NCBI GenBank assembly: GCA_013336275.1
Contig: JAAXUA010000003.1
Location: 130,698 to 194,697, forward strand
Direction: 5' to 3'
DNA: 64,000 bases
Source: Candidatus Falkowbacteria bacterium
GTDB lineage: Bacteria; Patescibacteriota; Patescibacteriia; Patescibacteriales; GWE2-39-37
Below the pieces are notes generated by a model, which saw only the letters and a list, made by a program, of their open reading frames with translations, did no database searches and was not told the DNA's origin. This document shows, in pieces, positions 12,011-64,000 of this stretch. A program made the position numbers and the translations under genes. The stretch's first letter is position 1. Every line of letters begins with the position of its first letter.

Positions 12011-12037
12011 CTCTATTAACAATAGTTAGATAAAAAT

Positions 12038-12069
12038 ACCGCGACTCCTGGTGGAGGTCGCGGTTTTTG
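12038..12069. terminator. bidirectional intrinsic terminator
   Basis: ACCGCGACTCC...GGAGGTCGCGGT followed by TTTTTGG, between convergent genes. Confidence 0.6.
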
Positions 12070-12080
12070 GTTGAAGACTA

Positions 12081-12740
12081 TCAAATGAGCCCTTGCCAAG
12101 GCACTATATCCTTTTCCGATAAGCGCAGATCAGTGGGCTTGTTTCTCGTCCGGTAAACCATGACAGAGGCATTTTCGAAGACGCCGAGATCGAGCTGTCG
12201 CATCGCCTCCTCTATGGATAGGCACTGCATGATTTTCTGGAACAAAATGAGCCAGTGTCCGTGAGTGACGACAAGCACCTTTTGCCCGCCGCAGTCTCGC
12301 TGCAGCATATCAAGAAAACTGTGGATGCGCAGTTCGATATCCGGCCAATTCTCTCCGCCAAGAGGACGGTAGTGATATAGGTCCTCTTTTTCTTTTCGCT
12401 CGATTTCTTCGGGGAAGCGGAGTTTTACTTGATTCAGAGTCATGGTGTGCCAGATGCCGCGCTGCCCTTCGGCTAGGCGAGGATCCTCGATTTTTTTGCA
12501 GTCGGGGAACATGATATCCAACGTTTGCCGGGCACGCTCGTAATACGAGCAGTAGTGCTTGTCGAATTCACCGAAAGCGCGTCTCAGGTGTGATCCGGTC
12601 AAGGCTGCTTGTTGTCTGCCTCTTGGTGTGAGAGGAAATCTGTAGTTGGCGACAAGGGCTTGGGCACGCTCATTCACCCCCATGATGTTGCCTTCGGATT
12701 CGGCGTGTCGAACGAGTATCAGTGTTTTGGGCCAGGGCAT
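12081..12740 (-). CDS. histidine phosphatase family protein (phosphoglycerate mutase-like)
   Basis: LILVRHAESEGN (RHG motif) and a later VVTHGH. Start set at the ATG preceded by AAGGAG; the track ORF extends 13 codons further. Confidence 0.8.
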   Translation of the reverse strand: MPWPKTLILVRHAESEGNIMGVNERAQALVANYRFPLTPRGRQQAALTGSHLRRAFGEFDKHYCSYYERARQTLDIMFPDCKKIEDPRLAEGQRGIWHTMTLNQVKLRFPEEIERKEKEDLYHYRPLGGENWPDIELRIHSFLDMLQRDCGGQKVLVVTHGHWLILFQKIMQCLSIEEAMRQLDLGVFENASVMVYRTRNKPTDLRLSEKDIVPWQGLI

Positions 12741-12917
12741 GATAGTTTCTCCTTTTATTTTTAATGATCTGCCTTTCATTCATATTTTTGCACAGTCCAT
12801 AGAGAAGTGTATTAGAGATGCTTCAATATTGAAATAAAATAATAAGAATAACCACCAATTTTGCTAAAGTTAAGTAATATACTATAATAATAAATGTACT
12901 TAAATTAATACACTTTT

Positions 12918-13652
12918 ATGAAAATAAGCGCACTTTTAACCCGTCTAGGACTCACCGAGGATGAGACTAAGGTTTATTTAGCTTTGCTGCGCACCGGCAA
13001 GTTGAATATATCGGAATTGTCGAAAGTTACAGGCCTTTATCGCCCGATGGTTTATAAGCTCCTGCCTCGACTGTATGGCATGCAGCTGGTCGCATATCAG
13101 AAGGTCGGCAAAAGAACTTATTATGTAGCGGAGAATCCGGCACAGTTGAAGCTGCTGGTCGATAAGCTGTCTGATGACTTGGAGATGGTATCAGAGGAGC
13201 TGTTTCAGACGTATCGCAACGGTAAGCAGCGGCCGGTCATTAAGAATTTCGAAGGCAAAGAAGGAATCAGGCGGGTGTATGACGAGATGATGAGCCTATG
13301 TAAGAAGGGTGATATCATTTATCGCTACGAATCTCCTAAAAATTATCAGAAAAACAAGGAATATTATCCGAGACTGTATCTGAACAAAGCTGCCGGGGCG
13401 CGGGAAAGCATCATTGAAAAATTCGTCATAACCAACGAGAAGACGCACATGCTGAGACATAAGAGGCTTGAGCGTTACTCCAAATACGTGCCCGCATCTT
13501 TCGACCCGTTCGAGTATGATATTACGCAGCTTATCTACAAGAATAGAGTGGTTTTTATCGATTACAAAAGAGAGGCGGCTAACGTGATCGAGAGCACTAG
13601 GTATGCCGAGTTCCAAAAACGGCTGTTCAAATTATTATTCGATAAGATATAA
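12918..13652 (+). CDS. TrmB-family transcriptional regulator
   Basis: N-terminal LGLTEDETKVYLALLRTGKLNISELSKVTGLYRPMVYKLLPRL is the TrmB HTH. Paralogous in layout to the 27336-28091 gene. Confidence 0.75.
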   Translation: MKISALLTRLGLTEDETKVYLALLRTGKLNISELSKVTGLYRPMVYKLLPRLYGMQLVAYQKVGKRTYYVAENPAQLKLLVDKLSDDLEMVSEELFQTYRNGKQRPVIKNFEGKEGIRRVYDEMMSLCKKGDIIYRYESPKNYQKNKEYYPRLYLNKAAGARESIIEKFVITNEKTHMLRHKRLERYSKYVPASFDPFEYDITQLIYKNRVVFIDYKREAANVIESTRYAEFQKRLFKLLFDKI

Positions 13653-13678
13653 ACGCGATCCTCTGCGATTGCTGGGGT

Positions 13679-13707
13679 TTGACAGAAACGGCAAAAAAGT
13701 GTTAAAT
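13679..13707 (+). promoter_or_regulatory. promoter TTGACA-17-TTAAAT
   Basis: Upstream of the decarboxylase leader. Confidence 0.45.
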
Positions 13708-13819
13708 TGGCCTATTCTTAGCATTTGATGTTAAACGATCTTTAGTCAAGAAATTACGAAAGGAGGAAGTGCTGTTGCGATGCATGAACGCTGTATAACC
13801 CCAAGACAAGGAGGAGGAC

Positions 13820-15166
13820 ATGCTTAGTAAAAAAACGAAAGACAGGCTGTTTCCGATGATTCCCGAAGCGCTGGAACTGGTGGCTCGAAACGGTTCATCA
13901 AGTCCGTTGTTGGCGAATATGCCTTCGTGTCAGCTTAGCCAAGGGGTTCACCTGATCGATCAGCAGACTTTGATCGATCGGGCCAATGAGATGAAGCGCC
14001 ACATCTGGCCGGACGGCGGCGGGACGAACTTGTTCGCGGTCAAAGGACAGCCCAACCACTGGGTCTTGAAGACTTTGTTGGATGCTGGCTTCGGCCTGGA
14101 CTGCAGCTCGCCGACCGAGATCTGGGATGCGGCGAAGGTCGGCACGAACGGTCATCCGGTGATGTACACCGCTAACGCGACTCCCTGGGAGCACCTGGAG
14201 TATGCCAGGCAGAACGGCGCCATCCTGAATCTTGATGATGACTGCTATCTCGACGAGCTTTCCGGAAAAATGCCGCAAATCATCTCTTTCCGGGTCAATC
14301 TGGCCAAGGCCAGGCAGGACGGTCAGAGCAAGATTATCGGCAAGGCGACGAAACAGAAATACGGCGTTCCCGTCGGTAGGCTAATCGAGGCTTTCCGCAA
14401 GGCCAAGAAGCTGGGCATCAAGAATTTCGGCCTGCACACCATGTATGCCAGCAATTGCCGCAGCTGGGAAACTCACGCCAAGACGCTTGAGATCTTGCTC
14501 GGCCTGGCATTGCAGCTTGAGGCCGCTCTGGGTATCAAGCTCGTCTTCATCAATGCCGGCGGTGGCATCGGCGTCGACTACAAACACCCCGATGACCAGA
14601 GCATCAAATATGGCGAAGATGACAAGCCGTTCAATCTTGAGATGTATGGAGCGGACGCCAACCGTCAGCTTGCGGAATTCGAAAGCGTGCATGGCTGGCG
14701 GCCGGTCCTTTATCTGGAGTGCGCGCGTTATGTTGCGGCTCCTGCTGGCATCTGGGTAGCGCCGATCATCTCGGTGACGCAGAAATATCGTCGCTTTGCC
14801 TGTATGGCGGCCTGCGACGGCGCTGACCTGTTGCGCGCTGGGATTTATCCGGCCCACCATCACATCGTCGTACTGGATAAGGACTTCCAGGAAGTGAAAG
14901 ACCGGAAGATCATCCGCCAGTCGATTGTCGGACCGCTGTGTGAGAACATCCACGCCGTCTCGCAGCGCCTACTGCCGGAAATCAGGGTCGGTGACCACGT
15001 CGTTTTCAGCGACACCGGTTGCCATGGTATCGAGATGGGCATGAATTACAACGGTTGGACCAAGTCCGGCCAAGTCATGCACCTGGCTGGCGGTGGTCTG
15101 CAGCTCATCAGCTTGCCTCAGACCATAGCTGACATCAGATCTTTACAGGTCCCGCTGAATCAATAA
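13820..15166 (+). CDS. PLP-dependent decarboxylase, Orn/DAP/Arg (group IV, alanine-racemase fold) family
   Basis: FAVKGQPN (PLP Lys), GGGIGVDY, GPLCENIH and a C-terminal beta domain. Substrate (DAP versus polyamine precursor) cannot be assigned by eye. Confidence 0.8.
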   Translation: MLSKKTKDRLFPMIPEALELVARNGSSSPLLANMPSCQLSQGVHLIDQQTLIDRANEMKRHIWPDGGGTNLFAVKGQPNHWVLKTLLDAGFGLDCSSPTEIWDAAKVGTNGHPVMYTANATPWEHLEYARQNGAILNLDDDCYLDELSGKMPQIISFRVNLAKARQDGQSKIIGKATKQKYGVPVGRLIEAFRKAKKLGIKNFGLHTMYASNCRSWETHAKTLEILLGLALQLEAALGIKLVFINAGGGIGVDYKHPDDQSIKYGEDDKPFNLEMYGADANRQLAEFESVHGWRPVLYLECARYVAAPAGIWVAPIISVTQKYRRFACMAACDGADLLRAGIYPAHHHIVVLDKDFQEVKDRKIIRQSIVGPLCENIHAVSQRLLPEIRVGDHVVFSDTGCHGIEMGMNYNGWTKSGQVMHLAGGGLQLISLPQTIADIRSLQVPLNQ

Positions 15167-15369
15167 GCGGCCGCAACAACGAACAGCCCGGAGAGCGATC
15201 TCCGGGCTTATTTTATGGCTTAATAATTATTTGATGACGGCGTAGAGATAGTTAAATACTAATTTTTAGATCGAACCCTCATTGTGCCGGCCCGAGGAAG
15301 TGCTTCTTAATGGTTGCTTAATTGTTTTAACCGATTATTATAATAATAATAACACCTTTCAAAAAACAT

Positions 15370-15762
15370 ATGAAAAACAATGTAGCGATTATTAGTGCGG
15401 TTGTGATACTGCTTTTAGGCGGAAGCTATTTTTATTATGGCACGAGCGACGATCAGCCAAAGATTTACGACAACCCAACCGGTGTGAACGATCAGCCAAA
15501 GACAGAGGCAAAAGCATTCGCCTTGTCTGATGTTGCCCAACACGCCACGGTTGAAAATTGCTGGTTAGCGATCGAAGGAAAAGTTTATGACGTCACGAAG
15601 TATATTGACGGAGGCAAACATCCTGGAGGCGCAGCGATTATTCAGGGATGCGGCCGGGATGCGACCGAACTATTCAACACCAGGCCGATGGGCTCGAAAA
15701 CTCCGCATTCAGATAAGGCAAAAAGCTTTTTGCCGAATTTCTATATCGGCGACCTGAAATAA
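15370..15762 (+). CDS. membrane-anchored cytochrome b5-like heme-binding domain protein
   Basis: N-terminal TM, then HATVENCWLAIEGKVYDVTKYIDGGKHPGG (cyt-b5 HPGG motif). Confidence 0.75.
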   Translation: MKNNVAIISAVVILLLGGSYFYYGTSDDQPKIYDNPTGVNDQPKTEAKAFALSDVAQHATVENCWLAIEGKVYDVTKYIDGGKHPGGAAIIQGCGRDATELFNTRPMGSKTPHSDKAKSFLPNFYIGDLK

Positions 15763-15810
15763 AACTTATCTAAAAAACGGGCCTAGCGGCTCGTTTTTGA
15801 TATCTGATTT

Positions 15811-17154
15811 TCAATCGAGTTTTCTCAGAGTCGCTCGCATATAGACCAAGGTGATGATAGCGGCAGTCGTGTTTATGATGAATACCCCCCACCAGACGCC
15901 CTTGAGTTGCCAGTCGAGAACTACAGCCAGAACCCAGAAGATCAGAAGCGGAGCGGCGATTTGGCGGTAAAGACCGATCCAGATCGCATAAAGAGGCTTT
16001 TTTAATCCTTGCAGCGCGGAGGTTGCGACATAGAGAGTGGTATAGGCGAAGTAAACGAAAGCGGAGATGCGCAAATATTCGACGCCGATACGGACAACCT
16101 CTCGGTCTTGGGAAAACAGCCCCATTAGCTGAGGTGCCAGCGCCAGCACCAACGCTGCCCCCATGATGGTGACATAGAAACCATAGAGCAGGCACAGGCG
16201 GATTGTCTCTTTGACTCGACCAAACAGCTTGGCCCCATTATTCTGTCCTACCAGCGTCAGGGCGGCGATGTTCAGTCCGACGATCGGCAGTACCGCCATC
16301 TGGTCTATCCGTGTCGCGATGCCATAAGCGGCTACGCCGGCCTTACCGTAGCGGCTTATGAAATAAGTAATGACAAATATGCCGATTGCCACGGTCAGCA
16401 TGTTGAGACTGGCAGGGAATCCTTGGCGGGCGATGTCGCGGTAATAGCGCCAACGCGGAATCAACATGTCCTTGCACTCTTTGCAGAAGATGTCCGTGCG
16501 GCCGACCTTTATCAGCAAATATACGGTTGTCAGAAATTGGATGACGACGGTCGCCCAGGCCACGCCAGCCAAACCCATGGCAGGCAGGCCGTAGCCGCCG
16601 CGGATGAACCAGGGATCGAAGATTATGTTGAGGAAAAAACCGATCACCAGGAGGTTGCGGTAAGTTTTGGTATTTCCCTGAGAGCTCAGAATGCCGCTGA
16701 GAACGAAGCTTAACAAGAAGAAGACCGAGCCGTAGAAGATCACGTTGCTGTAGCTCAGAGACATGGCTAGGTATGAATCACTAGCACCAAGAGTTCGGAA
16801 AAGAAAGGGTGAAAAAGCCAAACCAAGCCAGGTTAGGATCAGCGAAACAAAGAACCCGAAGCTGATGGATTGGACCGAGTAAAAGCGGGCAGACTTCATG
16901 TCGCCGGCCCCGAGCGAGTTGGCTATAAGTGCAGTGGCGGCGGTCGACACGCCTGAGCCCAGGGCGATAATGATAAAAAAGACCGGGAAAGAAAGGGAGA
17001 GGGCCGCAAGGGCATCAGTTGAAACTATTCCGGCAAAATAGGTGTCGACGACGTTGAAAAGCGTGTTGAAGAGGAATCCCATGCTGCTAGGAATTGCGAT
17101 CATTTTGATCAAGTCAGGAATGGGGGCGGTTGTAAGGTGGTTATTATTTTCCAT
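15811..17154 (-). CDS. MATE family efflux transporter
   Basis: 447 aa, 12 TM. N-terminal IPSSMGFLFNTLFNVVDTYFAG is typical of MatE. Confidence 0.9.
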   Translation of the reverse strand: MENNNHLTTAPIPDLIKMIAIPSSMGFLFNTLFNVVDTYFAGIVSTDALAALSLSFPVFFIIIALGSGVSTAATALIANSLGAGDMKSARFYSVQSISFGFFVSLILTWLGLAFSPFLFRTLGASDSYLAMSLSYSNVIFYGSVFFLLSFVLSGILSSQGNTKTYRNLLVIGFFLNIIFDPWFIRGGYGLPAMGLAGVAWATVVIQFLTTVYLLIKVGRTDIFCKECKDMLIPRWRYYRDIARQGFPASLNMLTVAIGIFVITYFISRYGKAGVAAYGIATRIDQMAVLPIVGLNIAALTLVGQNNGAKLFGRVKETIRLCLLYGFYVTIMGAALVLALAPQLMGLFSQDREVVRIGVEYLRISAFVYFAYTTLYVATSALQGLKKPLYAIWIGLYRQIAAPLLIFWVLAVVLDWQLKGVWWGVFIINTTAAIITLVYMRATLRKLD

Positions 17155-17262
17155 AGGGTTATTTTATTTTACCCTACCACCTTTTAGATAAAAATAAAAT
17201 TAGATTCGGAAGTATTGTTAAATATTTGCAATGTACTACTATTAATGTAAATAATCACACCT

Positions 17263-17940
17263 ATGAAAAAAATCAAAGTAACCAAAGATGGGCCATATAT
17301 AGTTTCGGGCTCAGTGCCGTTAGCCAAAGAAACCGCCGAGGGTGAATATAACGGTGGCCCGGAGCGGTGGCATACCGAGAGAAAATTTACGACCGGCGAG
17401 ATATATTCCTTGTGCCGTTGCGGACGATCAGGCAACATGCCTTTTTGTGACGGAGCCCATCTCAAGTTCGGCTTTGATGGAACGGAGACGGCTGGTTATG
17501 ACAAGTTTGTCGACAAGGCCAAGCTGATCACGGGGCCGGGACTGGACCTGCTTGATTGGTATGACCTGTGTTCTTTGGCCCGTTTCTGCCACCTGGGCAA
17601 TAACACGTGGAACGACGTGGCTAATTCCGATAATCAGAAATCGAAAGAAGATGCTGTTTACTCTGCCTGTTGCTGTCCCTCAGGGCGTTTAGTTCCAGTG
17701 GATAAAACGACCAACCAACCGATTGAGCCTGAGCTTGAGCCATCAATCAGTCTAACCGAAGATCCGATAAAGGATGTCAGCGGTCCCTTGTGGGTCAAGG
17801 GTGGCATCGAGATTGAGTCGGCCGAAGGAAAATCTTATGAAATACGCAATAGAGTGACCCTGTGCCGCTGCGGCAAGTCAGAAAATAAGCCATTGTGCGA
17901 CAGCTCCCATGTCGGCTGCAAATTCAAAGACAATCTTTAA
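17263..17940 (+). CDS. CDGSH iron-sulfur domain protein (two CDGSH motifs)
   Basis: CRCGRSGNMPFCDGAH and CRCGKSENKPLCDSSH. Confidence 0.85.
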   Translation: MKKIKVTKDGPYIVSGSVPLAKETAEGEYNGGPERWHTERKFTTGEIYSLCRCGRSGNMPFCDGAHLKFGFDGTETAGYDKFVDKAKLITGPGLDLLDWYDLCSLARFCHLGNNTWNDVANSDNQKSKEDAVYSACCCPSGRLVPVDKTTNQPIEPELEPSISLTEDPIKDVSGPLWVKGGIEIESAEGKSYEIRNRVTLCRCGKSENKPLCDSSHVGCKFKDNL

Positions 17941-27335: not shown

Positions 27336-28091
27336 CTATTTGCCCAATCTCCAAAGTGTATCAAAGAATTGCTTGTAGCTTTCTGCAATTTGCTGATTTT
27401 GAATCAAGAAGGCTGTAACTGGTTCACCAAAAAGATTAAAGCTGATTTTATCAGACCAGATATTCGTATTAACAAGGCCTGTAAACAATCCTGGCAGAAG
27501 GCGGTATTCGAAATTTAATCTCTCAGATTTAGATAGACTTAGCGCATCTCTTTGAGGTTCACTACCAATATATTTAATTTTAATATTTTTCTTGTTCCTG
27601 GTTTTTTCATAGCCGAAAAGTTTATCACTTAGTATTCTGCTAAAATTATCACCCTCTCCGCCGATTATTAGGAGTTCAGAATTAGCTTTGGCTGTGTTCA
27701 GAAGATTGAGTTCGTGTGAGACATATGACTCTTCTCCCTGAAAAACTTCAAATTGTTGAGCGGGCGGTAAGATAATGGCCTTCTGAAGCTGGAGAACGAC
27801 ATTGTCTGCTAGTTTTTTTTGTTGATCAACAAGTTTTGAAATTTGAGATGGATTTTTTGCAGAGAATTTTTTTCGACCCCGCTTTATTATATGTTGAACT
27901 AGCCCCCTTTTTTCAAGCGCTTCAATTGATTGATATACATACTGTCCATGTAGGTTGGTCTGGCTTATTATCTTAGAGCTGCCCACCTCCCCTAGAAAGA
28001 GAAGTGATATATAAACAGATGATTCGTTTTTGGTTAGACCTAGCCTAGAAAGATCGTTTATCAATCCTTGTTTTACATTTTCATCAAACAT
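27336..28091 (-). CDS. TrmB-family transcriptional regulator
   Basis: LSRLGLTKNESSVYISLLFLGEVGSSKIISQTNLHGQYVYQSIEALEKRGLV. Divergent from the PEP-utilising enzyme gene. Confidence 0.7.
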   Translation of the reverse strand: MFDENVKQGLINDLSRLGLTKNESSVYISLLFLGEVGSSKIISQTNLHGQYVYQSIEALEKRGLVQHIIKRGRKKFSAKNPSQISKLVDQQKKLADNVVLQLQKAIILPPAQQFEVFQGEESYVSHELNLLNTAKANSELLIIGGEGDNFSRILSDKLFGYEKTRNKKNIKIKYIGSEPQRDALSLSKSERLNFEYRLLPGLFTGLVNTNIWSDKISFNLFGEPVTAFLIQNQQIAESYKQFFDTLWRLGK

Positions 28092-41206: not shown

Positions 41207-41355
41207 ATAATTGCTTAATTCTAGTATAATTCCAGACTATTTACAACCTCTTGCCAAAAATAATAAAATTATCTATACTAACCTTTAGTAAAAAGCTCGA
41301 ACAAAGCTTTTTCTATTTTTCCACAATTAGTATCAAGCAGTCTTAAAGGCAGAGA

Positions 41356-41427
41356 GCGGGTATCGTATAATGGCTATTACATTACCTTGCCATGGTAGAG
41401 ATGGGGGTTCGATTCCCCCTACCCGCT
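41356..41427 (+). tRNA. tRNA-Gly (GCC)
   Basis: GCGGGTATCGTATAATGGCTATTACATTACCTTGCCATGGTAGAGATGGGGGTTCGATTCCCCCTACCCGCT. Acceptor GCGGGTA/TACCCGC, anticodon loop TTGCCAT, discriminator U. Confidence 0.9.
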
Positions 41428-41450
41428 CCCTGCTTTTAAATTTCTCAAAG

Positions 41451-41542
41451 AGGGGTATCGCCTGCCTGCCGGCAGGCAGGTATAATGGCTATTACATTAC
41501 CTTGCCATGGTAGAGATGGGGGTTCGATTCCCCCTACCCGCT
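41451..41542 (+). pseudogene. second tRNA-Gly(GCC) copy disrupted by a 20-nt palindrome in the D-loop, with two acceptor-stem changes
   Basis: Identical to copy 1 from TATAATGG to the discriminator. Positions 1-2 read AG instead of GC, giving two acceptor mismatches. CCTGCCTGCCGGCAGGCAGG is inserted between ...GGTATCG and TATAATGG. Confidence 0.6.
41461..41480. repeat. 20-nt perfect palindrome CCTGCCTGCCGGCAGGCAGG (copy 1)
   Basis: Read directly; identical to 53934-53953. Confidence 0.95.
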
Positions 41543-41554
41543 CAAGAAGCAAAA

Positions 41555-41578: not shown

Positions 41579-41736
41579 GCAGTTTTGGCTGATTTTAGTA
41601 TTGACTAATAATAAAAATCATGCTTTAGTATATGATTGCCGTTTTTTGGCAAATGTTCTTAAAAACAACAAATAACTATGGTGCAGATGAGCTGCAACAT
41701 ATCACAACGCCCAAGAGGCAACGAAAGGAGAAAGTG

Positions 41737-43005
41737 ATGCAAAAATGCAACTGTAGGCTGGGAGGGAAGGATTTGACGAGCGCGGTGTTGACGTATAACC
41801 AGTTTTTTGACGACTTGAAGAAGTGCTTCGTCGGACGGGATCGGGTGATAGATAATCTCCGATTTGCCATGGTGCAGAAACAGCACCTCCTGACCTTCGG
41901 ACCTCCGGGAACCTCCAAAACCGCCATCTTCGACGTCCTGTACAGCGGTTTGACCGAGGCGAACGGCTTCCATGCCGAGCTGTCGATGTTCATGACCGAG
42001 GACGCGCTTTTCGGACCCTACAACCCCAAGAAGATGAGGGAAGAAGGCGTATTGGAGCACAACGTTTCCGGCATGCTGCCGGAAGCGAACGTGGCGCGCC
42101 TCGGAGAATTCCTGGACGCCAACATGCCGCTGCTCAGGTCGACCTTGTCGGCCTTGAACGAACGGCGCATGGTGCGGGGAAGGCAGAATCTGAGCATCCC
42201 GCTCATTACAGCCTACTGTGATACCAACACCAACCCCGGGACTTTCCTGGAACGCCACCCCGAAGCCTGGGCAGTGCTCGACCGTTTCCTTTTCATGGCC
42301 TACGTCGACTACCTGTCTGACCCCGCAGAAATCACCGAGATGCTGCTTCGCTTCCAGGGAGGCAACGTCACCAACCTGTCCGGACGGCTTTCGATCAATC
42401 TGATCAACGAACTGTCGCGCCTGACGCTTGAGCCGCCATCGATCATCAAGAGCGAATTGATTTTCAGGAAGCTGGCTCAGGGTATGCAGGAATACCGCAT
42501 CCAACGACGCGCCGCCATCAGCGGCGATAAGCTCCCGGGAATAATCCTTCCGGAGATTTCTGATCGGCGGCTTTGCTGGGCCTCACAGGTTGCCGAAGTA
42601 AACGCCATCTTGAACGGCCGCGAGGAAGTCGTAGCCGAAGATATCGTGGCCCTGAAACAGGTGCTCGGTACCACCGCTGCTGAAGAAGAGATGTGGGTAA
42701 AAATCGCTGCCAAGATCATCGAAGAGGTGAAGGAAGAGCAGAAGATGCAGCTTGACCACGCGCAGTACATCGCCCTTGAAGGCCTGATCAAAGAGCTCGA
42801 CCAGATCGACCCGTCGGCAGCTGCTGACATCACGGCGCTGAAGCAGCTTGGCGAGAATCTCATGTCCCTGAAAAGGCAAGTTGAGATCATCGTTCCGGAA
42901 AACGACCAGGTAGCTTCGCTTTCAAAAAGGGCCTCCGGCATAATCACTGACAAGACTTCAGCTATCAGGGGACACGCAGCGACATTTGCCGGCATGACCA
43001 ACTAA
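41737..43005 (+). CDS. RavA/MoxR-like AAA+ ATPase with long helical C-terminal region
   Basis: GAAAGGAG SD. Walker A GPPGTSKT. LPEANVARLGEFLDANMPLLRSTLSALNER aligns without gaps with my recollection of RavA [36 protein letters not shown] sensor region. The track ORF begins at 41632. Confidence 0.8.
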   Translation: MQKCNCRLGGKDLTSAVLTYNQFFDDLKKCFVGRDRVIDNLRFAMVQKQHLLTFGPPGTSKTAIFDVLYSGLTEANGFHAELSMFMTEDALFGPYNPKKMREEGVLEHNVSGMLPEANVARLGEFLDANMPLLRSTLSALNERRMVRGRQNLSIPLITAYCDTNTNPGTFLERHPEAWAVLDRFLFMAYVDYLSDPAEITEMLLRFQGGNVTNLSGRLSINLINELSRLTLEPPSIIKSELIFRKLAQGMQEYRIQRRAAISGDKLPGIILPEISDRRLCWASQVAEVNAILNGREEVVAEDIVALKQVLGTTAAEEEMWVKIAAKIIEEVKEEQKMQLDHAQYIALEGLIKELDQIDPSAAADITALKQLGENLMSLKRQVEIIVPENDQVASLSKRASGIITDKTSAIRGHAATFAGMTN

Positions 43006-43013
43006 CCCAGGAG

Positions 43014-43976
43014 GTGATCGCTTTGCTTTTACCATTATTAGCAGGCGCCGCAGCTGTTGCAGCGGCCGCAGCATTGGCCTGGTATCTCTGGAAGAAAATC
43101 AGGAATAGCCAGGAAGAACAGCAGCAAGAACAGAGCGGTTTTCCCGGGAATCAAGGAGAAGGAGGAGGATCGAGAGGCGACAATCAGCAATCAGGACCGA
43201 GCCAGGAAGAACGTGAACGGCGCGCTCGCGAAGACATGGCGCGCAAGAACGAACTGTTGCGCTCGATAGTCAAGTCGATCGAGTTTTCGACCCGCGAAGT
43301 GGTTTCTGATATCCAGCTGCCCGGGACTTTACCCAGGCAATCGATCGTGCCGACCTCGAATTACAATGTCAGGCCGATCAAAGGTGCGGGCGAGTTCTCT
43401 TCGATACTCCCGTCGGCCCACATGCTTGATGATGAACAGTTTTATGGCCGCCTTTCCGCCAACAACTTGCTGGTGTCAGAATATCACGAGTATTACGGCA
43501 GCGGACGTCGCGTCCTTTTCGCCGCTTTCGACGGATCGGGCAGTATGGAGAAATACGGGCGCGCCCAGTGGGCCATCGGCCTTTGCGAGGCGATAATCGA
43601 TCGTTGTATCGAGCAGCAGGCCGAGCTCTACCTCTTGGTATATTCCGGAGTAATCAAGGGCGTGTATCACGTTTTTGACCGCAAGTCGGCCGAGGCGGTG
43701 AAGAGGAAGCTTAGGGAAATTCTCAGCCCCGAGGGAGGTACCGATATCAACCTGGCGCTCGACACCATCTTCGATATGATCAAGTCGGGCAAGTTCGACG
43801 AGGCCCGCGCCCTGCTGGTGACCGACGGAACAGAATCGGTCGATGAGGAACACATCTTGCAACGGCGCAAAACTGAGAAGGTCTTCCTTCATACGGTCAG
43901 CATCGCCGGGGAAAGGGATGATCTGCGCCGGGTTTCCAGCCGCTTCGACCAGTTGGCCATGTTCTCCGGCTCATAG
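43014..43976 (+). CDS. membrane-anchored VWA-domain protein (ViaA-like partner)
   Basis: N-terminal TM (LLLPLLAGAAAVAAAAALAWYLW), Q/E/G-rich linker, and a VWA domain with MIDAS residues DGSGS...GGTD...TDG. The true start may be TTG 43023, 8 nt after AGGAGG. Confidence 0.8.
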   Translation: MIALLLPLLAGAAAVAAAAALAWYLWKKIRNSQEEQQQEQSGFPGNQGEGGGSRGDNQQSGPSQEERERRAREDMARKNELLRSIVKSIEFSTREVVSDIQLPGTLPRQSIVPTSNYNVRPIKGAGEFSSILPSAHMLDDEQFYGRLSANNLLVSEYHEYYGSGRRVLFAAFDGSGSMEKYGRAQWAIGLCEAIIDRCIEQQAELYLLVYSGVIKGVYHVFDRKSAEAVKRKLREILSPEGGTDINLALDTIFDMIKSGKFDEARALLVTDGTESVDEEHILQRRKTEKVFLHTVSIAGERDDLRRVSSRFDQLAMFSGS

Positions 43977-43998
43977 TTATTGAAACCAAGCACATTCA

Positions 43999-44029
43999 CC
44001 CCCGCTCTCACAAGGAGCGGGGCTTTTTT
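43999..44029 (+). terminator. intrinsic terminator after the VWA gene
   Basis: CCCCGCTC-TCACAAGG-GAGCGGGG followed by CTTTTTTA. Confidence 0.7.
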
Positions 44030-44115
44030 ATCCCTCATTTCCTCATTGATACTTAATCGAAATGATTATATAGTGAAAGTACTTAGGTTAGTAGTTTTTT
44101 AATAAAACAAAAGAT

Positions 44116-47100
44116 ATGTTTCTAAAAGACCAAGAAGTACAACAGGTTTCGGGGGTGACACCGCAAGAAAGCGTTGCCAAGACCCCTAATTTTAAAAAAA
44201 TCATCGTTGCAGCGCTCGCGTGTCTGGTTGTTGCCGGCGCCGGATTGGCGGCCTTCAGTTTTTTGAGTTCGCAAAATGACGCGACTGGAAAGCTCAAGCT
44301 GTCATTGTCGGTTAAAGGGGCTGACCTTAACGGCATTGAAAAGGGCGCGGCCTTTATCCTGTCTTCAAACAAGAAATTATCCGCAGGAGAAATCGAAAAG
44401 AATTTGAAATTCGACCCGCAGGTAAAATTCGAAGCAAAAGAAAAGAAGTCTTTGCTTACGTCATTGGTGAATAGCGTTCTGGCTGCCAGCCAAGGCGGCG
44501 CATTCAATAATGAGTATGAGCTTACGCCCAAGGAAGAATTATCGGATGGGGTGATATATAAGATTCAGACCGCCACCGGCACCGAGATGCAGCTTGATCA
44601 TGATTATTCTTGGGCCTTCAATGTCAAAGAGGATTTCGATATCGATGAATCATTGCCGAACAATGAGGCGACCGGGGTGCCGGTCAACACGGGAATCGAG
44701 GTGACGATGAACCGGTTGGATATCGGTAGTGACGCCGGAAAATATTTCGCCATCGAGCCGAGCATCAAGGGTCGATTCGAGGTTGGAATAAACAAGATCA
44801 CTTTCGTGCCCGAGGGCGACTTGAAAGAAAAAACGTTGTACAAGGTCACGATAAAGAAGGGCTATCAGGCTGGCGAGAAAAATGAAGAGCTCATGGAGGA
44901 TAAGTCATTTTCTTTTGAGACCGCCACTGGCGATTCTGGCGCATACGCGCCGAGTATGTCATGGGGCAATGATTATTTTGAACTATCGACTGATAAGGAA
45001 GGATTTTTGGAGGCAAGCGGCGACGCCACCACATCGGAGGCAGTGTTTAGCCGATACGCCGATACAGCAGGATTTTTAAAAGATTTTTATGATTATCGCG
45101 ACCGCATGTATGGCTGGTCGAACTTCAATAAGGAGCCCTTCAAGCCTGGCTCCGGAGTGCAAGAGGTCGCCAAGTTCAGGCCGGAGTTGCTGAAGCGCGC
45201 TGAGGGTGACAGCTATGGATTGATCAAGCTGCCACGTAAATTGGACGCCGGTTTTTATGTGGCCAAGCTGTCAGTCGGAGATGATACGGATTACGCTTTC
45301 ATCAGGGTTTCTCCATTGGCGTACTATTATTCGGAAATCAACGGTGATGGTCTCATTTGGGCATATGATTTTGCCAATAAAAAACCTTTTGCCAGCGTCA
45401 GGGTGAGTTTGCTTGATAAGGCAGGAACCGAGAAGCAGCTGGGGCAGACTGATAATGACGGCCTGCTAAAGTTTGATTCCAGCTCGGATAAGGATGATAA
45501 TTCCGGCACGACCTTGCTCTTCAAGGGGGAAGGTGTTGGCGAAACAGTTGCTCCCGATGCCGGGCGCATCATGCAGAAGCGTCGCAACTATTTTCAGGGT
45601 TATCTTAATACTGATCGTTACGCATATCGCCTGACGGACACGGTTCATTTTTGGGGAGTGGTCAAAGGCAGGAGCTTCGACTTGAGGCAGAAGAAAGTCA
45701 AAGTCCGTTTGGATGACTATATTGAAAAAGAGGTCATGGTTTCGCCATTCGACACGATCGAGGGGCAGCTTGATTTCGCCGGACTTCCTTCGGGGTACCA
45801 CAATCTTGTTGTCAGCTATGACGACGAGACGATTACCCAATCCGGAATCGAGGTCTTTTCTTTTGAAAAGCCGCTTTACAAGATAGAGGTTGTGCCAGAA
45901 AAGAGCTTTTCTGTGACGGATGTCCCGGTTAAGGCCAAAGTGAAGGTTAATTTTTTCGATGGCACACCGGTCAAAAACATGGATTTGAATTATTCCATTT
46001 ATTGGCGCGGTGATAATAATGGAACCGTCAGGACCAATGATCAAGGAGAAGCCGAACTCTCCTACACCCCCGGTTATTATTTTGAAGAGACTAGCGACCA
46101 ATATTCCGATTCTTGGACGACTTATCCCAACAGTCTGAGATTCTCGGTCAAGCCGCAATTGCCGGAGGAGGGCGAGATTTGGGGAGAGGCTTATGTCAGT
46201 ATTTATGCCCCCAAGGTCTATCTGCAATCCGAGGCTTCAGAAAAAGGCAACGCCTTGGTGTTCAAGAGCAAGGCTAACGACCTGGAGCTGGCAACGAGCT
46301 CTGAGGAAAACATGATCGGCAGGCCGGCCGTCGGAATCAAGGTTTTGGCCAAAGTTGTCCGGTATTATTATGAAGAAAGACCAGACGGGGAATATTATGA
46401 CCCGATCGAGAAAGTTAAAATCAAGAAGTTTGTTTATGAATTAAAGAAGGAGACAGTCAAGGAGGCCGAGGGCACGAGCGATCAGAAGGGCGAGTGGTCG
46501 GTGGAGGTAGACAAGAAAGAAATAAAGAAATTCGGCTACCTTAAAACCATCTTTTCGACCCAGGATAGCAACGGTAAAAAAGTGATGAGCTCCGCCCAGT
46601 CTTATAACTACTATCCGAACGATAACAGCGCATTGAATCTGGAAAATGCCGACCTCGAAAAGACCCCAGGCATTTCCTACAAAATCGGTGATAAGGTTAA
46701 TTTGCGGGTGGTCATGACTGGCACCAAAAAGCCGGTCGATGACCGGACTTTAATTATCAGCTTCCAGGAACGGTTGCGAGACGCGAAGCTGGTCAGCAAG
46801 CCGGAATTCAGCGAGGATTTTTCCGCGGAGCACCTACCTTCAATGACGTATATGGCCGTCAAGATGATGCCGAGCGGCTTCATTGAAAGTTATTATATTA
46901 CGGCGTCGTATAAGGACGAGGAGAATAAGCTGTCTGTCGAAATCGCACCCAACAAGGAAAGGTACAAGCCCCGCGAAGACATCAATCTTGATATCACGAT
47001 AAAGAATAAATCAGACCAAGGCGTCAAGGCAGTGGCCAACGTTGCGGCCGTCGATGAATCGCTATTCAGTGTGACGCCTTGGGGCTATGGCGGAGAGATT

Positions 47101-49518
47101 TTGAGCTCATTATATTCAGACATCATGGCTTATCCCAACTCCTTGTCCACTCGCTATGTTATCGATTATCGGAACGGCGCGGAGAAGGGTGGTTGTTTCG
47201 TCGCTGGCACGGAAATCAACCTCGCCGATGGTACGAAGAAGAAAATAGAGGAGCTGCGAGTCGGCGATGAAGTGTCGACTTTCGAAAAAGATAATTCTCC
47301 TACCAGAGCCAAGAGCGTGATCCAGGGCATATCATCACATTTGGTTGATGGCTACCTCGTGATCAACGGTCAGCTGAAAGTTACGCCTGAACACAAGATC
47401 ATGGTCAGCGGAGAATGGAAAATGGCCGGTGCCGCCAGGGTGGGAGATCTCTTGGCCAATGATCAGGGTGAGTCTGAGAAAATCAGCGAAATAAGATATG
47501 TCGGATCCAGGAATGCCAGGGTTTATAATATTATCGTCGGACGATACCACACCTATTTCGCTCAGGGTTATTATGTCCATAATGCCGAAAAGGGCGGCGG
47601 CGGGGATGTCAGGAATTTTTTCGAGGACACGCCGCTGTATAAGCAGATAGAGTCGGATGACAATGGCCAGCTCAAAGCCTCGTTCAGGGTACCGGACAAT
47701 CTGACTAGCTGGAGAGTTTCTGTTAACGCCTATAGTCCGGAAAGCTTTAGCGCTGGCAGCCAAGACAAGCTCATTCCTGTTGGATTACCGCTGTTTGCCG
47801 ATGCCGTGGCGGCCAGAAAGTATCTGACGGGCGACTCGCCCATCATTAAAGTCAGAGCTTTCGGCACCGAGTATAAGAAAAATGAGCCGATTGAGTTCAG
47901 CGTGACGAGCGATAGCTTGAAATTGCAATTCGCGACCACGACCAGCTTGAACGAAGTGGCGGTGAGTCTTGGCCGTCTGCCCAAGGGAAGACATAGCCTG
48001 ATTCTCCGGGTCAAGCAGGGAGAGCTCAAGGATGCTTTGGAAAAGAAATTCGAAGTCATAGATAATTATTTCAAGGAATTGAAGACCGATAGCCGGCTGA
48101 TTACCGATGGCCAGGCCGGGCTTAAGGGGAATAGCGGCAGTTTCACTGACATTGTTTTCGTCGATGAAGGCAAAGGCAAATTCTTCGAAAGGCTTTTGGG
48201 ACTCAACTGGCAATCAAGCGTACGTTCCGACATTCAATCGGCATCATATCTGGCGGCCAAGACTTTGGATGAATATTTCTATGGAGGTGAAAAAAAATTC
48301 AGCCAAGAGATCAGCTTAGCCGGTTATCAGTCCCGTGAAAACGGGTCAGGTCCGCTGGCAGTTTTCCCCTACAGCAAGCCTAATCTGGCCTTGACCGCGG
48401 AGATCGCTGATGCCATGCCGGAATCATTCGACAATTCATGGGCGATAAACGGCCTAGAAGCGCGATTACGCGAGCAGAAGCTTGATGATAAAGAGACGGC
48501 TCAAGCGCTTTGGGCGCTAGCGGCCCTGGATAGGCCGCAGCTGCCGCTGATTAACTACCTTAAGGATAGTGCCAGCACCTCGCTGGAAGCCAAGGTTTAT
48601 CTGGCCTTGGCCCTGAGCCGAGTGGGCGACGTTGAAGGTGCCCGCGCCTTGTATTTTGATCAGCTGCTTCCGCAGACGAAAGCTGACGGAGGACAAGCGC
48701 ATTTAGAGGTTTCTGCCGTCAAAGAGAAGAACGTCAAAGTTACCGCGATCTTCGGCGTTCTGGTATCGCGCATGGAAGCTGGTATGGACGGCAATAATCT
48801 GAAGTCGATCATGAACTACCTCTCAGCCAATCAGCCTAAAGATGACACGATAACGCTCGAGGAGGCCATGATCACGAGAAGTGAGATCGCTAAGGCCGAT
48901 CAATCTGACAGCTCCCTCGATTTCCGGACGTCAGACCGTAACGGTAAGATTGATTTGAGCAAGGGGCAGTCGTTCCAGCTGACTATTTCCGAACAAGAGA
49001 TGCAAACATTGTCTTTTAGCAATATCAAAGGATCGGCCAGAGCGATCAGTTATTACGAGGATTATGCTGACCCGGCCAAAATGACGACCAGCAAGTCGGT
49101 CAGCGTTGAGCGGCAGTACTTGGTCAATGGCAAAGAGGCGACCGAGTTCAATGAAGGTGATCTTATCACGATCCGCTTGACGCCTCGTCTTTCGGCCGAA
49201 GCTCCCGACGATTCCTATCAGCTGGTTGAGTATCTGCCGTCAGTATTCAAACCCATCGTCCGCGATTATAGCCCGGACATGCAGACCGGCAGCAATTGCG
49301 ATCCGATCTGGTATCCGGTAAGGACGACCGACGAGGCCGTATATTTCAGCATCGGCAAATGGTTCCAGTCGTCGAATGTTTGCCAGCAACGGACAATCAA
49401 TTTCCGCGCCAGGGCTATCGGCAAAGGAAGCTTCAAAGCGCAGCCAGCAGCGATACAGTCTTTGAATGATGTGGGCATAATGAACTTGTCGAAAGAGAGG
49501 ACCGTTATAGTCAAGTAA
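44116..49518 (+). CDS. signal-anchored alpha-2-macroglobulin-family protein (MG-domain array, no CxEQ thioester) with an embedded Hint domain
   Basis: 1800 aa. N-terminal KK + TM anchor. MG-type motifs (DRYAYRLTDTVHFWGVVKG; VANVAAVDESLFSV). A2M-domain hallmark RNFFEDTPLY...FRVPDNLTSWRVSVNAYS. Helical TED-like region without C-x-E-Q, and only 4 Cys in total. C-terminal VRTTDEAVYF...RARAIGKGSFKAQPA resembles the bacterial A2M end domain. Confidence 0.8.
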   Translation: MFLKDQEVQQVSGVTPQESVAKTPNFKKIIVAALACLVVAGAGLAAFSFLSSQNDATGKLKLSLSVKGADLNGIEKGAAFILSSNKKLSAGEIEKNLKFDPQVKFEAKEKKSLLTSLVNSVLAASQGGAFNNEYELTPKEELSDGVIYKIQTATGTEMQLDHDYSWAFNVKEDFDIDESLPNNEATGVPVNTGIEVTMNRLDIGSDAGKYFAIEPSIKGRFEVGINKITFVPEGDLKEKTLYKVTIKKGYQAGEKNEELMEDKSFSFETATGDSGAYAPSMSWGNDYFELSTDKEGFLEASGDATTSEAVFSRYADTAGFLKDFYDYRDRMYGWSNFNKEPFKPGSGVQEVAKFRPELLKRAEGDSYGLIKLPRKLDAGFYVAKLSVGDDTDYAFIRVSPLAYYYSEINGDGLIWAYDFANKKPFASVRVSLLDKAGTEKQLGQTDNDGLLKFDSSSDKDDNSGTTLLFKGEGVGETVAPDAGRIMQKRRNYFQGYLNTDRYAYRLTDTVHFWGVVKGRSFDLRQKKVKVRLDDYIEKEVMVSPFDTIEGQLDFAGLPSGYHNLVVSYDDETITQSGIEVFSFEKPLYKIEVVPEKSFSVTDVPVKAKVKVNFFDGTPVKNMDLNYSIYWRGDNNGTVRTNDQGEAELSYTPGYYFEETSDQYSDSWTTYPNSLRFSVKPQLPEEGEIWGEAYVSIYAPKVYLQSEASEKGNALVFKSKANDLELATSSEENMIGRPAVGIKVLAKVVRYYYEERPDGEYYDPIEKVKIKKFVYELKKETVKEAEGTSDQKGEWSVEVDKKEIKKFGYLKTIFSTQDSNGKKVMSSAQSYNYYPNDNSALNLENADLEKTPGISYKIGDKVNLRVVMTGTKKPVDDRTLIISFQERLRDAKLVSKPEFSEDFSAEHLPSMTYMAVKMMPSGFIESYYITASYKDEENKLSVEIAPNKERYKPREDINLDITIKNKSDQGVKAVANVAAVDESLFSVTPWGYGGEILSSLYSDIMAYPNSLSTRYVIDYRNGAEKGGCFVAGTEINLADGTKKKIEELRVGDEVSTFEKDNSPTRAKSVIQGISSHLVDGYLVINGQLKVTPEHKIMVSGEWKMAGAARVGDLLANDQGESEKISEIRYVGSRNARVYNIIVGRYHTYFAQGYYVHNAEKGGGGDVRNFFEDTPLYKQIESDDNGQLKASFRVPDNLTSWRVSVNAYSPESFSAGSQDKLIPVGLPLFADAVAARKYLTGDSPIIKVRAFGTEYKKNEPIEFSVTSDSLKLQFATTTSLNEVAVSLGRLPKGRHSLILRVKQGELKDALEKKFEVIDNYFKELKTDSRLITDGQAGLKGNSGSFTDIVFVDEGKGKFFERLLGLNWQSSVRSDIQSASYLAAKTLDEYFYGGEKKFSQEISLAGYQSRENGSGPLAVFPYSKPNLALTAEIADAMPESFDNSWAINGLEARLREQKLDDKETAQALWALAALDRPQLPLINYLKDSASTSLEAKVYLALALSRVGDVEGARALYFDQLLPQTKADGGQAHLEVSAVKEKNVKVTAIFGVLVSRMEAGMDGNNLKSIMNYLSANQPKDDTITLEEAMITRSEIAKADQSDSSLDFRTSDRNGKIDLSKGQSFQLTISEQEMQTLSFSNIKGSARAISYYEDYADPAKMTTSKSVSVERQYLVNGKEATEFNEGDLITIRLTPRLSAEAPDDSYQLVEYLPSVFKPIVRDYSPDMQTGSNCDPIWYPVRTTDEAVYFSIGKWFQSSNVCQQRTINFRARAIGKGSFKAQPAAIQSLNDVGIMNLSKERTVIVK
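47194..47583 (+). other. Hint / bacterial intein-like (BIL) domain, residues 1027-1156 of the A2M-like ORF
   Basis: CFVAGTEINLADG (Cys1, block A), LKVTPEHKIMV (T-x-x-H, block B), VYNIIVGRYHTYFAQG (block F), YYVHN (block G). The +1 residue is Ala. AEKGG flanks both junctions. Confidence 0.8.
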
Positions 49519-50340
49519 ATGAGTATCAAGAAAATTGCGCTACTGTCTCTGGTTTTTATTCTTGCCGCCGAGCCTAGCTTCGCTGGCGCCAGTTTATCTT
49601 ACGAATACAGGGAGTACAAAAGTTTGGTCGGACGGCAGAAGAACACCGGCTACAGCCTCCGCACTAAGACACCTTTTATCGGCGTTGTTTCCCACCACTT
49701 GCCTACGGCCTCCCCTTTAATAGATAATTTTTACTATCAGCTCAGAAAGGGGCGCCCCAACATCAAAACTTTCGTCGTAATCGGCCCGGATCATTCTGAG
49801 CGGTGCCGGCAGAAATTTAGCGTCAGTGATTCCAACGTTTCCACCATGTATGGCGAGTTGCAGTCTGATAAGCGAGTCTTTCAGGCCCTGCTGTCGGCAG
49901 GAGCAAAAAGCGAAGCGGGGTGTTTCGAGGGCGAACATTCAATCGGAATCCAAGCTAACTACATCCGCAAATTTTTTCCGACAGCGAAAATCGTGCCGAT
50001 CCTGTTATCATACTCAGCCAAGCAGCGTGATTTTGAGATATTGATAGAGACATTAAAAAAAAATCGGGCCGACATTTTCGTCTTGGCCAGCGTTGACTTC
50101 AGCCACTATCTAGAGGCAAGGCAGGCAGATGCAGTCGATGCAGTCAGCCGGAAGATGATCAACGCTCTTGATGGCTCATCTTTTACTCTGAAGCAGATCG
50201 ACTCGCCAGCAACAATCAAGATAATCTTGGGGCTGGCTAAAAAGCTCCAATTAAAGCCGGAAATTATCGAACATAGGAACTCGTTTGATTATAACGGCGC
50301 GTACAAGAATACGACCAGCTATTTTTCGATTTTGTTCTAA
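49519..50340 (+). CDS. Memo/LigB-like (AmmeMemoRadiSam-B family-like) protein with Sec signal peptide
   Basis: Signal MSIKKIALLSLVFILAAEPSFA. The motif order VVSHH..., VVIGPDHSE, GEHSIGIQANYIRKFFP, IVPILLS, SVDFSHY mirrors the Memo-family His-containing motifs. The ATG abuts the A2M stop (TAAATG). Confidence 0.55.
   Translation: MSIKKIALLSLVFILAAEPSFAGASLSYEYREYKSLVGRQKNTGYSLRTKTPFIGVVSHHLPTASPLIDNFYYQLRKGRPNIKTFVVIGPDHSERCRQKFSVSDSNVSTMYGELQSDKRVFQALLSAGAKSEAGCFEGEHSIGIQANYIRKFFPTAKIVPILLSYSAKQRDFEILIETLKKNRADIFVLASVDFSHYLEARQADAVDAVSRKMINALDGSSFTLKQIDSPATIKIILGLAKKLQLKPEIIEHRNSFDYNGAYKNTTSYFSILF

Positions 50341-62654: not shown

Positions 62655-64000
<1,346 letters not shown>

Follow-up and report, generated by a model that had tools for sequence, protein, structure and literature searches.

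Two probably independent gene pairs side by side in a Candidatus Falkowbacteria genome: a MoxR/VWA couple and a widespread A2M-Hint/Memo cassette

Do four consecutive genes for an ATPase, a membrane-tethered protein, a very large surface protein and a secreted protein belong to one system? The question is raised by a 64-kb stretch of DNA from Candidatus Falkowbacteria, which belongs to the Candidate Phyla Radiation (CPR)/Patescibacteria; the whole of this stretch is called the window below. Four genes in it encode, in order, a MoxR-class AAA+ ATPase with a RavA-like core (gene 1), a protein with a VWA domain (gene 2), a thioester-less alpha-2-macroglobulin (A2M) homologue carrying a Hint domain (gene 3) and a Memo-like protein (gene 4). 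An earlier note on this DNA had grouped them as one gene neighbourhood, matched to no described system, with the caution that functional coupling was supported by adjacency only. The open reading frames (ORFs) lie where that note had placed them, all on the forward strand, and Pfam and NCBIfam bear out its four domain assignments (Table 1). We conclude that the region very probably consists of two independent operons that are neighbours in one Falkowbacteria lineage: a MoxR/VWA pair (unit A, 41737-43976) and an A2M-Hint/Memo cassette (unit B, 44046-50340).

This conclusion is carried by a survey of gene neighbourhoods, which the same note had called for and which we ran from both pairs. From the A2M side, one genome per GTDB species was queried with an alignment of 33 family members; 588 stretches matched, 561 of which encode a relative. 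Neighbourhood counts out of 80 refer to the best 80 loci of that scan with up to 10 kb of flank per side, whose ORFs were searched by phmmer with the proteins of the window, followed by hmmsearch with family profiles. The upstream side was counted as readable where it spans at least 800 nt (63 loci), and the downstream side where it spans at least 900 nt (72 loci). A MoxR/VWA pair adjoins the A2M gene at one of the 80 species loci, or one of the 63 with a readable upstream side. This GTDB species locus (L006) encodes an A2M 76% identical to that of the window, and its synteny with the window is complete from tmRNA to tRNA-Leu; a metagenome contig (L001; A2M 77% identical) is fully syntenic too. 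In metagenome contigs whose A2M is 59, 55 and 54% identical, A2M-Hint and Memo are kept, no MoxR/VWA is present and the flanks are unrelated, comprising TsaE and signal peptidase II, an HD-domain protein and DUF5666, and an RRM protein and gyrase A, respectively; a 56%-identity relative has only about 450 nt of readable sequence upstream of A2M, and a 49% relative little or none. From the other side, a metagenome scan with the MoxR alignment gave 24 loci, mostly short, about four of them with several kb downstream, which sufficed to establish the MoxR-VWA pairing. MoxR/VWA pairs elsewhere have no A2M or Memo gene nearby, and this includes Pacebacteria and Buchananbacteria loci with several kb of flank. 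The adjacency is thus lineage-specific, since beyond a single genus-level lineage the pairs are never adjacent in the loci surveyed, which is the outcome that the earlier note had named as refuting. The survey upheld the earlier caution and turned against the grouping itself, so that a four-gene AAA+/VWA/A2M/Memo “system” is not to be carried forward.

The DNA between genes 2 and 3 was analyzed for signals that would separate the pairs. The hairpin and T run reported there fold with an energy of -17.5 kcal/mol (z -3.5), and none of 200 shuffles folds equally well; a promoter-like site for the A2M/Memo unit follows. In L001 and L006 neither the hairpin nor the promoter-like site differs from the window by a single base, although intergenic bases next to them do. 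That these bases are identical though the A2Ms are only 76-77% identical points to selection on the hairpin and the promoter-like site, and so supports the two transcription units that the earlier note had supposed.

As a variant of the bacterial macroglobulin systems, the A2M-Hint/Memo cassette is real and widespread, and it appears to be undescribed. At 58 of the 72 readable loci the gene directly downstream of A2M is a same-strand Memo gene. When neighbours within five genes on either side were clustered over the 80 loci, Memo occupied position +1 in 59 and, apart from an extracytoplasmic function (ECF) sigma factor, no other neighbour recurred in more than nine. In 43 of 60 cases the stop codon of A2M overlaps or abuts the start codon of Memo, the usual overlap being 4 or 1 nt, and in the window the gene 4 ATG abuts the A2M stop (TAAATG), just as first read. 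Record titles of the A2M loci name Parcubacteria groups, Microgenomates (Collierbacteria), Peregrinibacteria, Gracilibacteria, Dojkabacteria and Saccharibacteria, which spreads the cassette over the whole radiation; the A2M/Memo pairing had been reported correctly, with its breadth understated. Full-text literature searches turned up neither an A2M with a Hint insert nor a linkage of A2M and Memo, most subscription journals lying outside the coverage; A2M-domain surface proteins of Vampirococcus are mentioned in passing, with protease defence as a suggestion (PMC8080830).

Some of these records bear other titles. L006, L010, L016, L017, L021 and others are titled “uncultured Gammaproteobacteria” or “Pseudomonadales” (“binchicken”, co-assembly bins), yet their loci are typically CPR, and one record titled “Nanoarchaeia archaeon” likewise holds a typical CPR locus. 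These taxonomic labels look wrong, since, for example, the tmRNA tag peptide of L006 is identical to that of the window.

Gene 4 had been labelled Memo/LigB-like, and its matches to PF01875 and TIGR04336 agree with that label. It has an N-terminal hydrophobic segment (aa 6-26), as do all A2M-linked Memo proteins. A phmmer search of solved structures with gene 4 gave no match; the family profile reaches human MEMO1 (E 1e-8), and the positions aligned to the MEMO1 metal site are conserved (HH59-60, GPxH92, EH140S and SxD193FSH196Y). The MEMO1 alignment stops short of the Memo Cys-Gly motif, the position of which we take to be Asp-Ser in the A2M-linked subfamily. In 21 loci the Memo protein is C-terminally fused to a PGA_cap domain (CapA-like, poly-gamma-glutamate capsule synthesis); the window has no PGA_cap gene. 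No AMMECR1 or radical-SAM partner turned up in the window genes scanned from 32 to 59 kb, and the recurrent neighbours include none. An ECF-type sigma factor (Sigma70_r2 + r4_2) is encoded directly upstream of A2M, on the same strand, at 16 of the 63 readable loci, and no homologue was detected in the window. One such sigma factor (L117:7450-7998) lies upstream of a Hint-less A2M.

The other pair, with its RavA-like AAA+ ATPase and VWA protein, is a module conserved in its own right across the CPR: at nine of nine readable loci (Pacebacteria, Buchananbacteria and metagenomes), the homologue of gene 1 is followed by one of gene 2. The ORF of gene 1 opens at 41632, and the start at 41737 agrees with homologue lengths and with an AGGAG upstream. 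Pfam assigns it PF20030 bpMoxR (121 bits, cut-off 27), AAA_5 and AAA_lid_8. Walker A, sensor 1, arginine finger, sensor 2 and AAA lid of a MoxR-class AAA+ core are present, with GPPGTSKT (Walker A), N164, R183 and R277/R278 invariant in alignment A2. The protein ends in a helical tail, and a hydrophobicity scan of it found no hydrophobic segment. Among solved structures gene 1 matches E. coli RavA only (E 4e-19, RavA 17-285). A gap-free alignment of the core to RavA had been claimed; the RavA-like core stands, and the alignment contains a few short gaps. Nor is gene 1 a RavA equivalog: it scores 75.9 bits against a cut-off of 681 with NF010054, over model positions 18-332 of 498, and neither in this model nor in the solved structure is the part of RavA beyond the AAA+ core matched. 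The Walker B region of the family is atypical, reading RLGEFLD (aa 120-127), with Gly where RavA has its Mg-coordinating Asp; in alignment A2, Gly123 and Asp127 are each at least 90% conserved and Glu124 is invariant. The Mg2+/ATP site of this family may be altered. CPR homologues of gene 1 are 38-90% identical, and all close homologues are CPR. PADLOC returned a marginal PbeC match for gene 1 only (E 0.005, 13.7 bits) and nothing for genes 2-4. A defence-system reading, prompted by PF20030, was dropped on this PADLOC result and on the absence of a propeller fusion.

Gene 2 bears out the earlier note. It has a GTG start 8 nt past the gene 1 stop, a hydrophobic helix at its N terminus (aa 1-26, lacking a positive n-region and followed by KKIR), a charged low-complexity linker rich in Q, E and G, and a VWA domain whose metal ion-dependent adhesion site (MIDAS) is complete (DGSGS, GGTD and TDG). 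Since the Shine-Dalgarno sequence AGGAGG at 43009-43014 overlaps the GTG, translation may in fact begin at a TTG at 43023. Solved structures gave no match to gene 2 by phmmer. Ten homologues span 204-350 aa, some being clipped at contig ends, and about 265-350 aa in readable loci; all ten have the N-terminal helix, the basic cluster and DxSxS. The protein is predicted to be tethered to the cytoplasmic face of the membrane. Unit A is probably a membrane-proximal, chaperone-type couple in which the ATPase is translationally close-coupled to its VWA adaptor. By analogy with described MoxR-VWA couples (PMC7159879 and the RavA-ViaA literature cited there), the MIDAS of the VWA domain would bind a client peptide, and remodelling of that client would fall to the AAA+ ring.

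In other CPR genomes this pair has flanks of a different kind. A multi-transmembrane (multi-TM) protein that is about 235 aa long and contains an HEGGH (HExxH-like) motif follows it at L092:10281-11003, L094:4662-5360 and L095:5203-5901, and a secreted/TM protein matching no Pfam family precedes it at L092:7162-7887, L095:1714-2814 and L102:314-1126. These flanks suggest that MoxR/VWA belongs to a four-gene membrane module of its own in those genomes; the window holds no homologue of either flanking protein.

Given that the pair occupies unrelated places in other CPR genomes, it might have reached the Falkowbacteria lineage as a small, horizontally acquired islet at tRNA-Gly beside a resident A2M/Memo cassette, which we consider unlikely. 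The pair does stand directly after tRNA-Gly, and a partial tRNA duplicate is of the kind that integration can leave. What had been described as a tRNA-Gly pair is, however, one intact gene with a degenerate partial duplicate, of which the 3′ ~60 nt equal the first copy, while a GC-rich palindrome (gcctgcctgccggcaggcagg; region 41431-41543) stands in place of the 5′ end. The relatives L001, L006 and L093 have one tRNA-Gly at that place; the duplicate is therefore peculiar to the window and unlinked to the pair. GC content steps from 0.40-0.45 to 0.55-0.59 over the pair and back to 0.44-0.49, but the GC of the two genes (0.557 and 0.558) and their GC at third codon positions (GC3) deviate only about +1.6 standard deviations from the window mean, and other genes match them. 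There is no integrase or mobility gene nearby, the close homologues all come from the CPR, and a scan of viral contigs found no relatives. We found no relative with the same synteny that lacks the pair and would present a clean empty site. Overall, the evidence against a recent insertion of MoxR/VWA is stronger than the three hints for it.

Turning to the macroglobulin, Pfam reads gene 3 as Big_5, bMG3, A2M_BRD (aa 854-985), PT-HINT/Vint/Hint (aa 1022-1155), A2M (aa 1174-1212) and bMG10. Its 1800-aa product shows 100% identity to a hypothetical protein in a Candidatus Falkowbacteria MAG. Among solved structures, the A2M family profile matches ECAM, Sa-A2M, CD109, TEP1 and human A2M, the ECAM/Sa-A2M type being best (E ~1e-23). 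The CxEQ thioester motif is absent from the window A2M, and none of 85 family members has it at the position of the thioester domain; the only cysteines of the window protein are 36, 1027 (Hint Cys1), 1728 and 1756. A 24-aa tail ending in KK precedes the signal-anchor helix, for which the positive-inside rule predicts an N-in/C-out orientation. Relatives of gene 3 occur in no fewer than 561 species genomes. When 1.84 billion representatives were searched, the BRD-Hint-MG7 segment matched 372 clusters (50% identity) at E <= 1e-30, which makes this architecture a large family; in the top 150 of these clusters nearly all proteins have 1.7-1.9 thousand residues and match in a single stretch at about the same position. 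At two loci the tblastn A2M match runs to 6.9-7.9 kb (L010:10001-16854 and L051:9857-17803) and the main ORF to about 5.5 kb (11314-16857 and 12263-17806, respectively); an extra upstream A2M-like segment or a second gene may be present there.

The Hint domain sits between A2M_BRD and A2M/MG7. In profile and pairwise alignments its insertion point corresponds to human A2M ~703-717, and the bait region of human A2M comprises residues 690-728 (PMC8267569). The domain is present at 77 of the 80 species loci, always at this one fixed site. In 84 distinct family sequences, Cys1 and TxxH are found in 84/84 and the terminal HN in 83/83; the two residues preceding Cys1 are Gly-Gly in 78/83, and the domain measures 128-130 aa. 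At +1, 79/83 sequences have a non-nucleophilic residue (E30, D22, A19, Q5, N2 and K1) and four have Ser; the window has Ala. Cleavage rather than splicing is expected, since the residues for thioester formation and Asn cyclisation are kept and the ligation nucleophile is missing.

Hint matches a RecA mini-intein as well as toxin Hint domains among solved structures, and it is precisely absent from three members (L063:9989-14899, L077:2293-7575 and L085:2205-7478), in which a continuous Gly-rich linker (AEKGG-GSGSGGD) takes its place. AEKGG stands on both flanks of the domain, and these flanks and the Hint-less linker resemble an occupied and an empty insertion site. An ordinary selfish mini-intein, splicing out to leave a conventional Type II A2M with an unrelated neighbour, could account for this resemblance and for the intact Cys1, TxxH and HN blocks, but we regard it as improbable: the prevailing +1 residues make canonical trans-esterification and ligation impossible, no homing endonuclease is present in a domain of so constant a length, a single site kept across the radiation fits a domesticated domain, and the Memo linkage is far above that of a chance neighbour.

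Based on these observations, we propose that unit B operates as a two-gene cassette under its own conserved promoter-like site. Its first product would be an A2M-like protein without a thioester, anchored in the membrane and exposed at the cell surface; hydrophobicity and charge agree with the topology proposed earlier, which put the ATPase and the VWA domain inside the cell and the A2M body and the Memo-like protein outside. A Gly-rich flexible bait linker would carry a catalytically intact Hint domain that lacks the splicing nucleophile, forms a thioester at Gly1026-Cys1027 and cyclises Asn1156. The chain would thereby be cut where proteases cut classical A2Ms, giving an anchored N-fragment of ~109-115 kDa and a C-fragment of ~71 kDa (computed for double cleavage: 114.7 kDa, or 109.4 kDa without the anchor, 14.4 kDa and 71.2 kDa). 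The reported bait cleavage products are 102 + 77 kDa for Sa-A2M and 91 + 74 kDa for MagD (PMC5764988). The outcome could be either (i) constitutive two-chain maturation, as in C3, or (ii) a triggered self-cleaving bait, which might pass the Gly1026 acyl group to an outside nucleophile. The co-translated, secreted Memo(-CapA) metalloprotein would act outside the cell as an A2M accessory, A2M/Memo expression would in some lineages be under the ECF sigma factor, and unit B might serve to protect an exposed episymbiont surface against proteases.

A bolder version, which we put forward as tentative and rather doubtful, is that Hint takes over both hallmarks of A2Ms, with the Gly-Cys thioester as the covalent warhead in place of CXEQ, self-cleavage in place of bait cleavage and Memo(-CapA) as an obligatory partner. 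The protein might then, with the same degree of doubt, be a self- or externally triggered trap or attachment device that couples the N-fragment to a protease amine or to a wall or host-surface component. Such a reaction may be likened to that of Hedgehog, which couples to cholesterol.

Several points weigh against our reading of two independent operons with a self-cleaving A2M in the second. The independence was judged from the adjacency survey rather than from genome-level co-occurrence of the pairs, and the units are adjacent in at least three independent assemblies (window, L001 and L006), so functional recruitment specific to this lineage is possible. The topology was assigned from hydrophobicity and charge. 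The ATPase activity of gene 1 is uncertain, since its Walker B region lacks the usual Asp. Hint cleavage in the family is a prediction from conserved residues, and the four Hint domains with Ser at +1 could splice. The link between Memo and Hint is not strict either, since 13 Hint-bearing A2Ms lack an adjacent Memo and the Hint-less L063 has one, so that a strict dependence of one on the other is not supported; two more distant Hint-less A2Ms have no Memo. That all four genes form one system, with cytoplasmic MoxR/VWA remodelling or exporting the surface A2M (the MIDAS holding its tail, for example) and Memo acting outside, would suit their same-strand adjacency in these three assemblies, the predicted placement of VWA domain and A2M tail alike at the membrane's inner face, and the need of Type II A2Ms for membrane partners such as MagB (PMC5764988), but it is highly improbable in view of the survey from both sides, the conserved terminator and promoter-like site between the pairs, and an A2M N-terminal tail that is not conserved in the A1 consensus.

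Table 1. Positions of the features discussed, in window coordinates or, where a locus is named, in those of that locus
Feature	Position	Strand	Basis
tRNA-Gly (GCC), intact copy; upstream border of the MoxR/VWA unit	41355..41430	+	ARAGORN; Rfam 61.2 bits
Degenerate partial tRNA-Gly duplicate	41472..41543	+	sequence comparison; Rfam 41.9 bits
Gene 1: cytoplasmic MoxR-class AAA+ ATPase, RavA-like core, 422 aa	41737..43005	+	Pfam, alignment A2, structure match
Gene 2: predicted membrane-tethered VWA protein, 320 aa	43014..43976	+	VWA_2, VWA and VWA_CoxE matches; hydrophobicity scan
Intrinsic terminator closing unit A	44000..44029	+	9-bp stem with 7 G-C pairs (44000-44022), then T run
Promoter-like TTGATA-17-TATAGT for the A2M/Memo unit	44046..44074	+	consensus scan, 10/12 matches; consensus match alone
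Gene 3: signal-anchored thioester-less alpha-2-macroglobulin homologue, 1800 aa	44116..49518	+	Pfam domains, family profile
Gene 3 predicted signal-anchor helix, aa 25-52	44188..44271	+	hydrophobicity scan, sequence
Hint domain of gene 3, aa 1027-1156, 130 aa	47194..47583	+	PT-HINT, Vint and Hint matches
Gene 4: predicted secreted/anchored Memo-like protein, 273 aa	49519..50340	+	PF01875 80 bits; TIGR04336 94.1 bits (cut-off 26)
ECF sigma factor examples	L012:9294-9857 and 15 further loci
Memo-PGA_cap fusions	L009:7417-9189 and 20 further loci (e.g. L014, L015, L017, L062)

The surroundings of the two units are housekeeping genes: PNPase, NusA, H+-pyrophosphatase, trigger factor, tRNA-Leu, tmRNA, SmpB and tRNA-Gly upstream, and IF3, L35, L20, an SBP_5 protein, tRNA-Leu and RNase J downstream. 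The compositional outlier of the window lies elsewhere, at 27336-28091 on the reverse strand (GC 0.365 and GC3 0.31, where the means are 0.49 and 0.59), and the region around it from 26 to 30 kb is likewise GC-poor. A 23S rRNA gene starts at 62657 (listed as 62657-64000); the rRNA genes appear unlinked, since no 16S rRNA match was found upstream of it anywhere in the window.

CPR bacteria live attached to other cells, and few of their surface proteins have been characterised. A widespread surface protein of ~200 kDa with predicted self-cleavage offers a testable handle on the biology of the CPR envelope, and the cassette has a bearing on ways of triggering the A2M/complement fold. If Hint did supply the covalent warhead, this would be a new mechanistic class in the A2M/complement superfamily, conserved across an episymbiont radiation.

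Each part of the region has relatives among described systems. Unit A resembles RavA-ViaA and other MoxR-vWA couples in having a MoxR-class AAA+ protein with a PF20030 match followed by a VWA protein with a full MIDAS; it differs from RavA-ViaA in that RavA is unmatched beyond its AAA+ core and the Walker B region is atypical. With the ternary systems of Kaur et al. 2020 (PMC7159879) it shares a PF20030-type MoxR, whereas the propeller fused to vWA is absent: gene 2 is a short tethered VWA protein without propeller or effector domain, the window has no third component, and the host belongs to the CPR rather than to multicellular bacteria.

Gene 4 is like AmmeMemoRadiSam protein B and MEMO1 in its TIGR04336 match and its conserved His-rich metal site. 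It departs from them in carrying a signal or anchor that predicts an extracytoplasmic location, in having no AMMECR1 or radical-SAM gene nearby, in its linkage to A2M and in the frequent fusion of its homologues to PGA_cap. The Hint domain, for its part, recalls bacterial intein-like (BIL), PT-HINT and Hedgehog C-terminal domains, being a mini-Hint of ~130 aa with Cys1, TxxH and HN but no +1 nucleophile, in a secreted or surface protein; domains of these types cleave rather than splice. Unlike them, it lies inside an A2M scaffold at the bait region, rather than before a toxin or at a C terminus.

Gene 3 agrees with the Type I A2Ms (ECAM/YfhM and Sa-A2M) in domain order, bait position and C-terminal MG10, and differs from those accompanied by PBP1c in lacking CXEQ, a lipobox and a pbpC neighbour and in possessing the Hint insert. 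No pbpC gene is present among the window neighbours (VWA, Memo, IF3, L35, L20 and SBP_5), and penicillin-binding protein families do not occur among the annotated recurrent neighbours of the 80 loci. Its likeness to the Type II A2Ms (MagD/YfaS) is closer: it is a multi-domain macroglobulin without CXEQ that is associated with the cytoplasmic membrane and has an accessory gene (PMC5764988), the Type II fold without a thioester was found, and the fragments predicted for cleavage at the bait position fall near the ~90-110 + 70-77 kDa of that type. It is distinct from the Type II magABCDEF arrangement in its own TM anchor, the Hint domain in the bait linker, the secreted Memo(-PGA_cap) partner and a CPR host in place of a Gram-negative one with a periplasm; no Mag partner was noted among the annotated neighbours, for which Mag protein sequences were not used as queries. 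The earlier note had already read both contexts, pbpC and mag/yfaS, as absent. Bacterial macroglobulins have been described in two settings, the thioester type with PBP1c and the thioester-less type in the mag operon (PMC5764988), and the A2M-Hint/Memo cassette adds a third, apparently large genomic context that extends to at least several hundred species.

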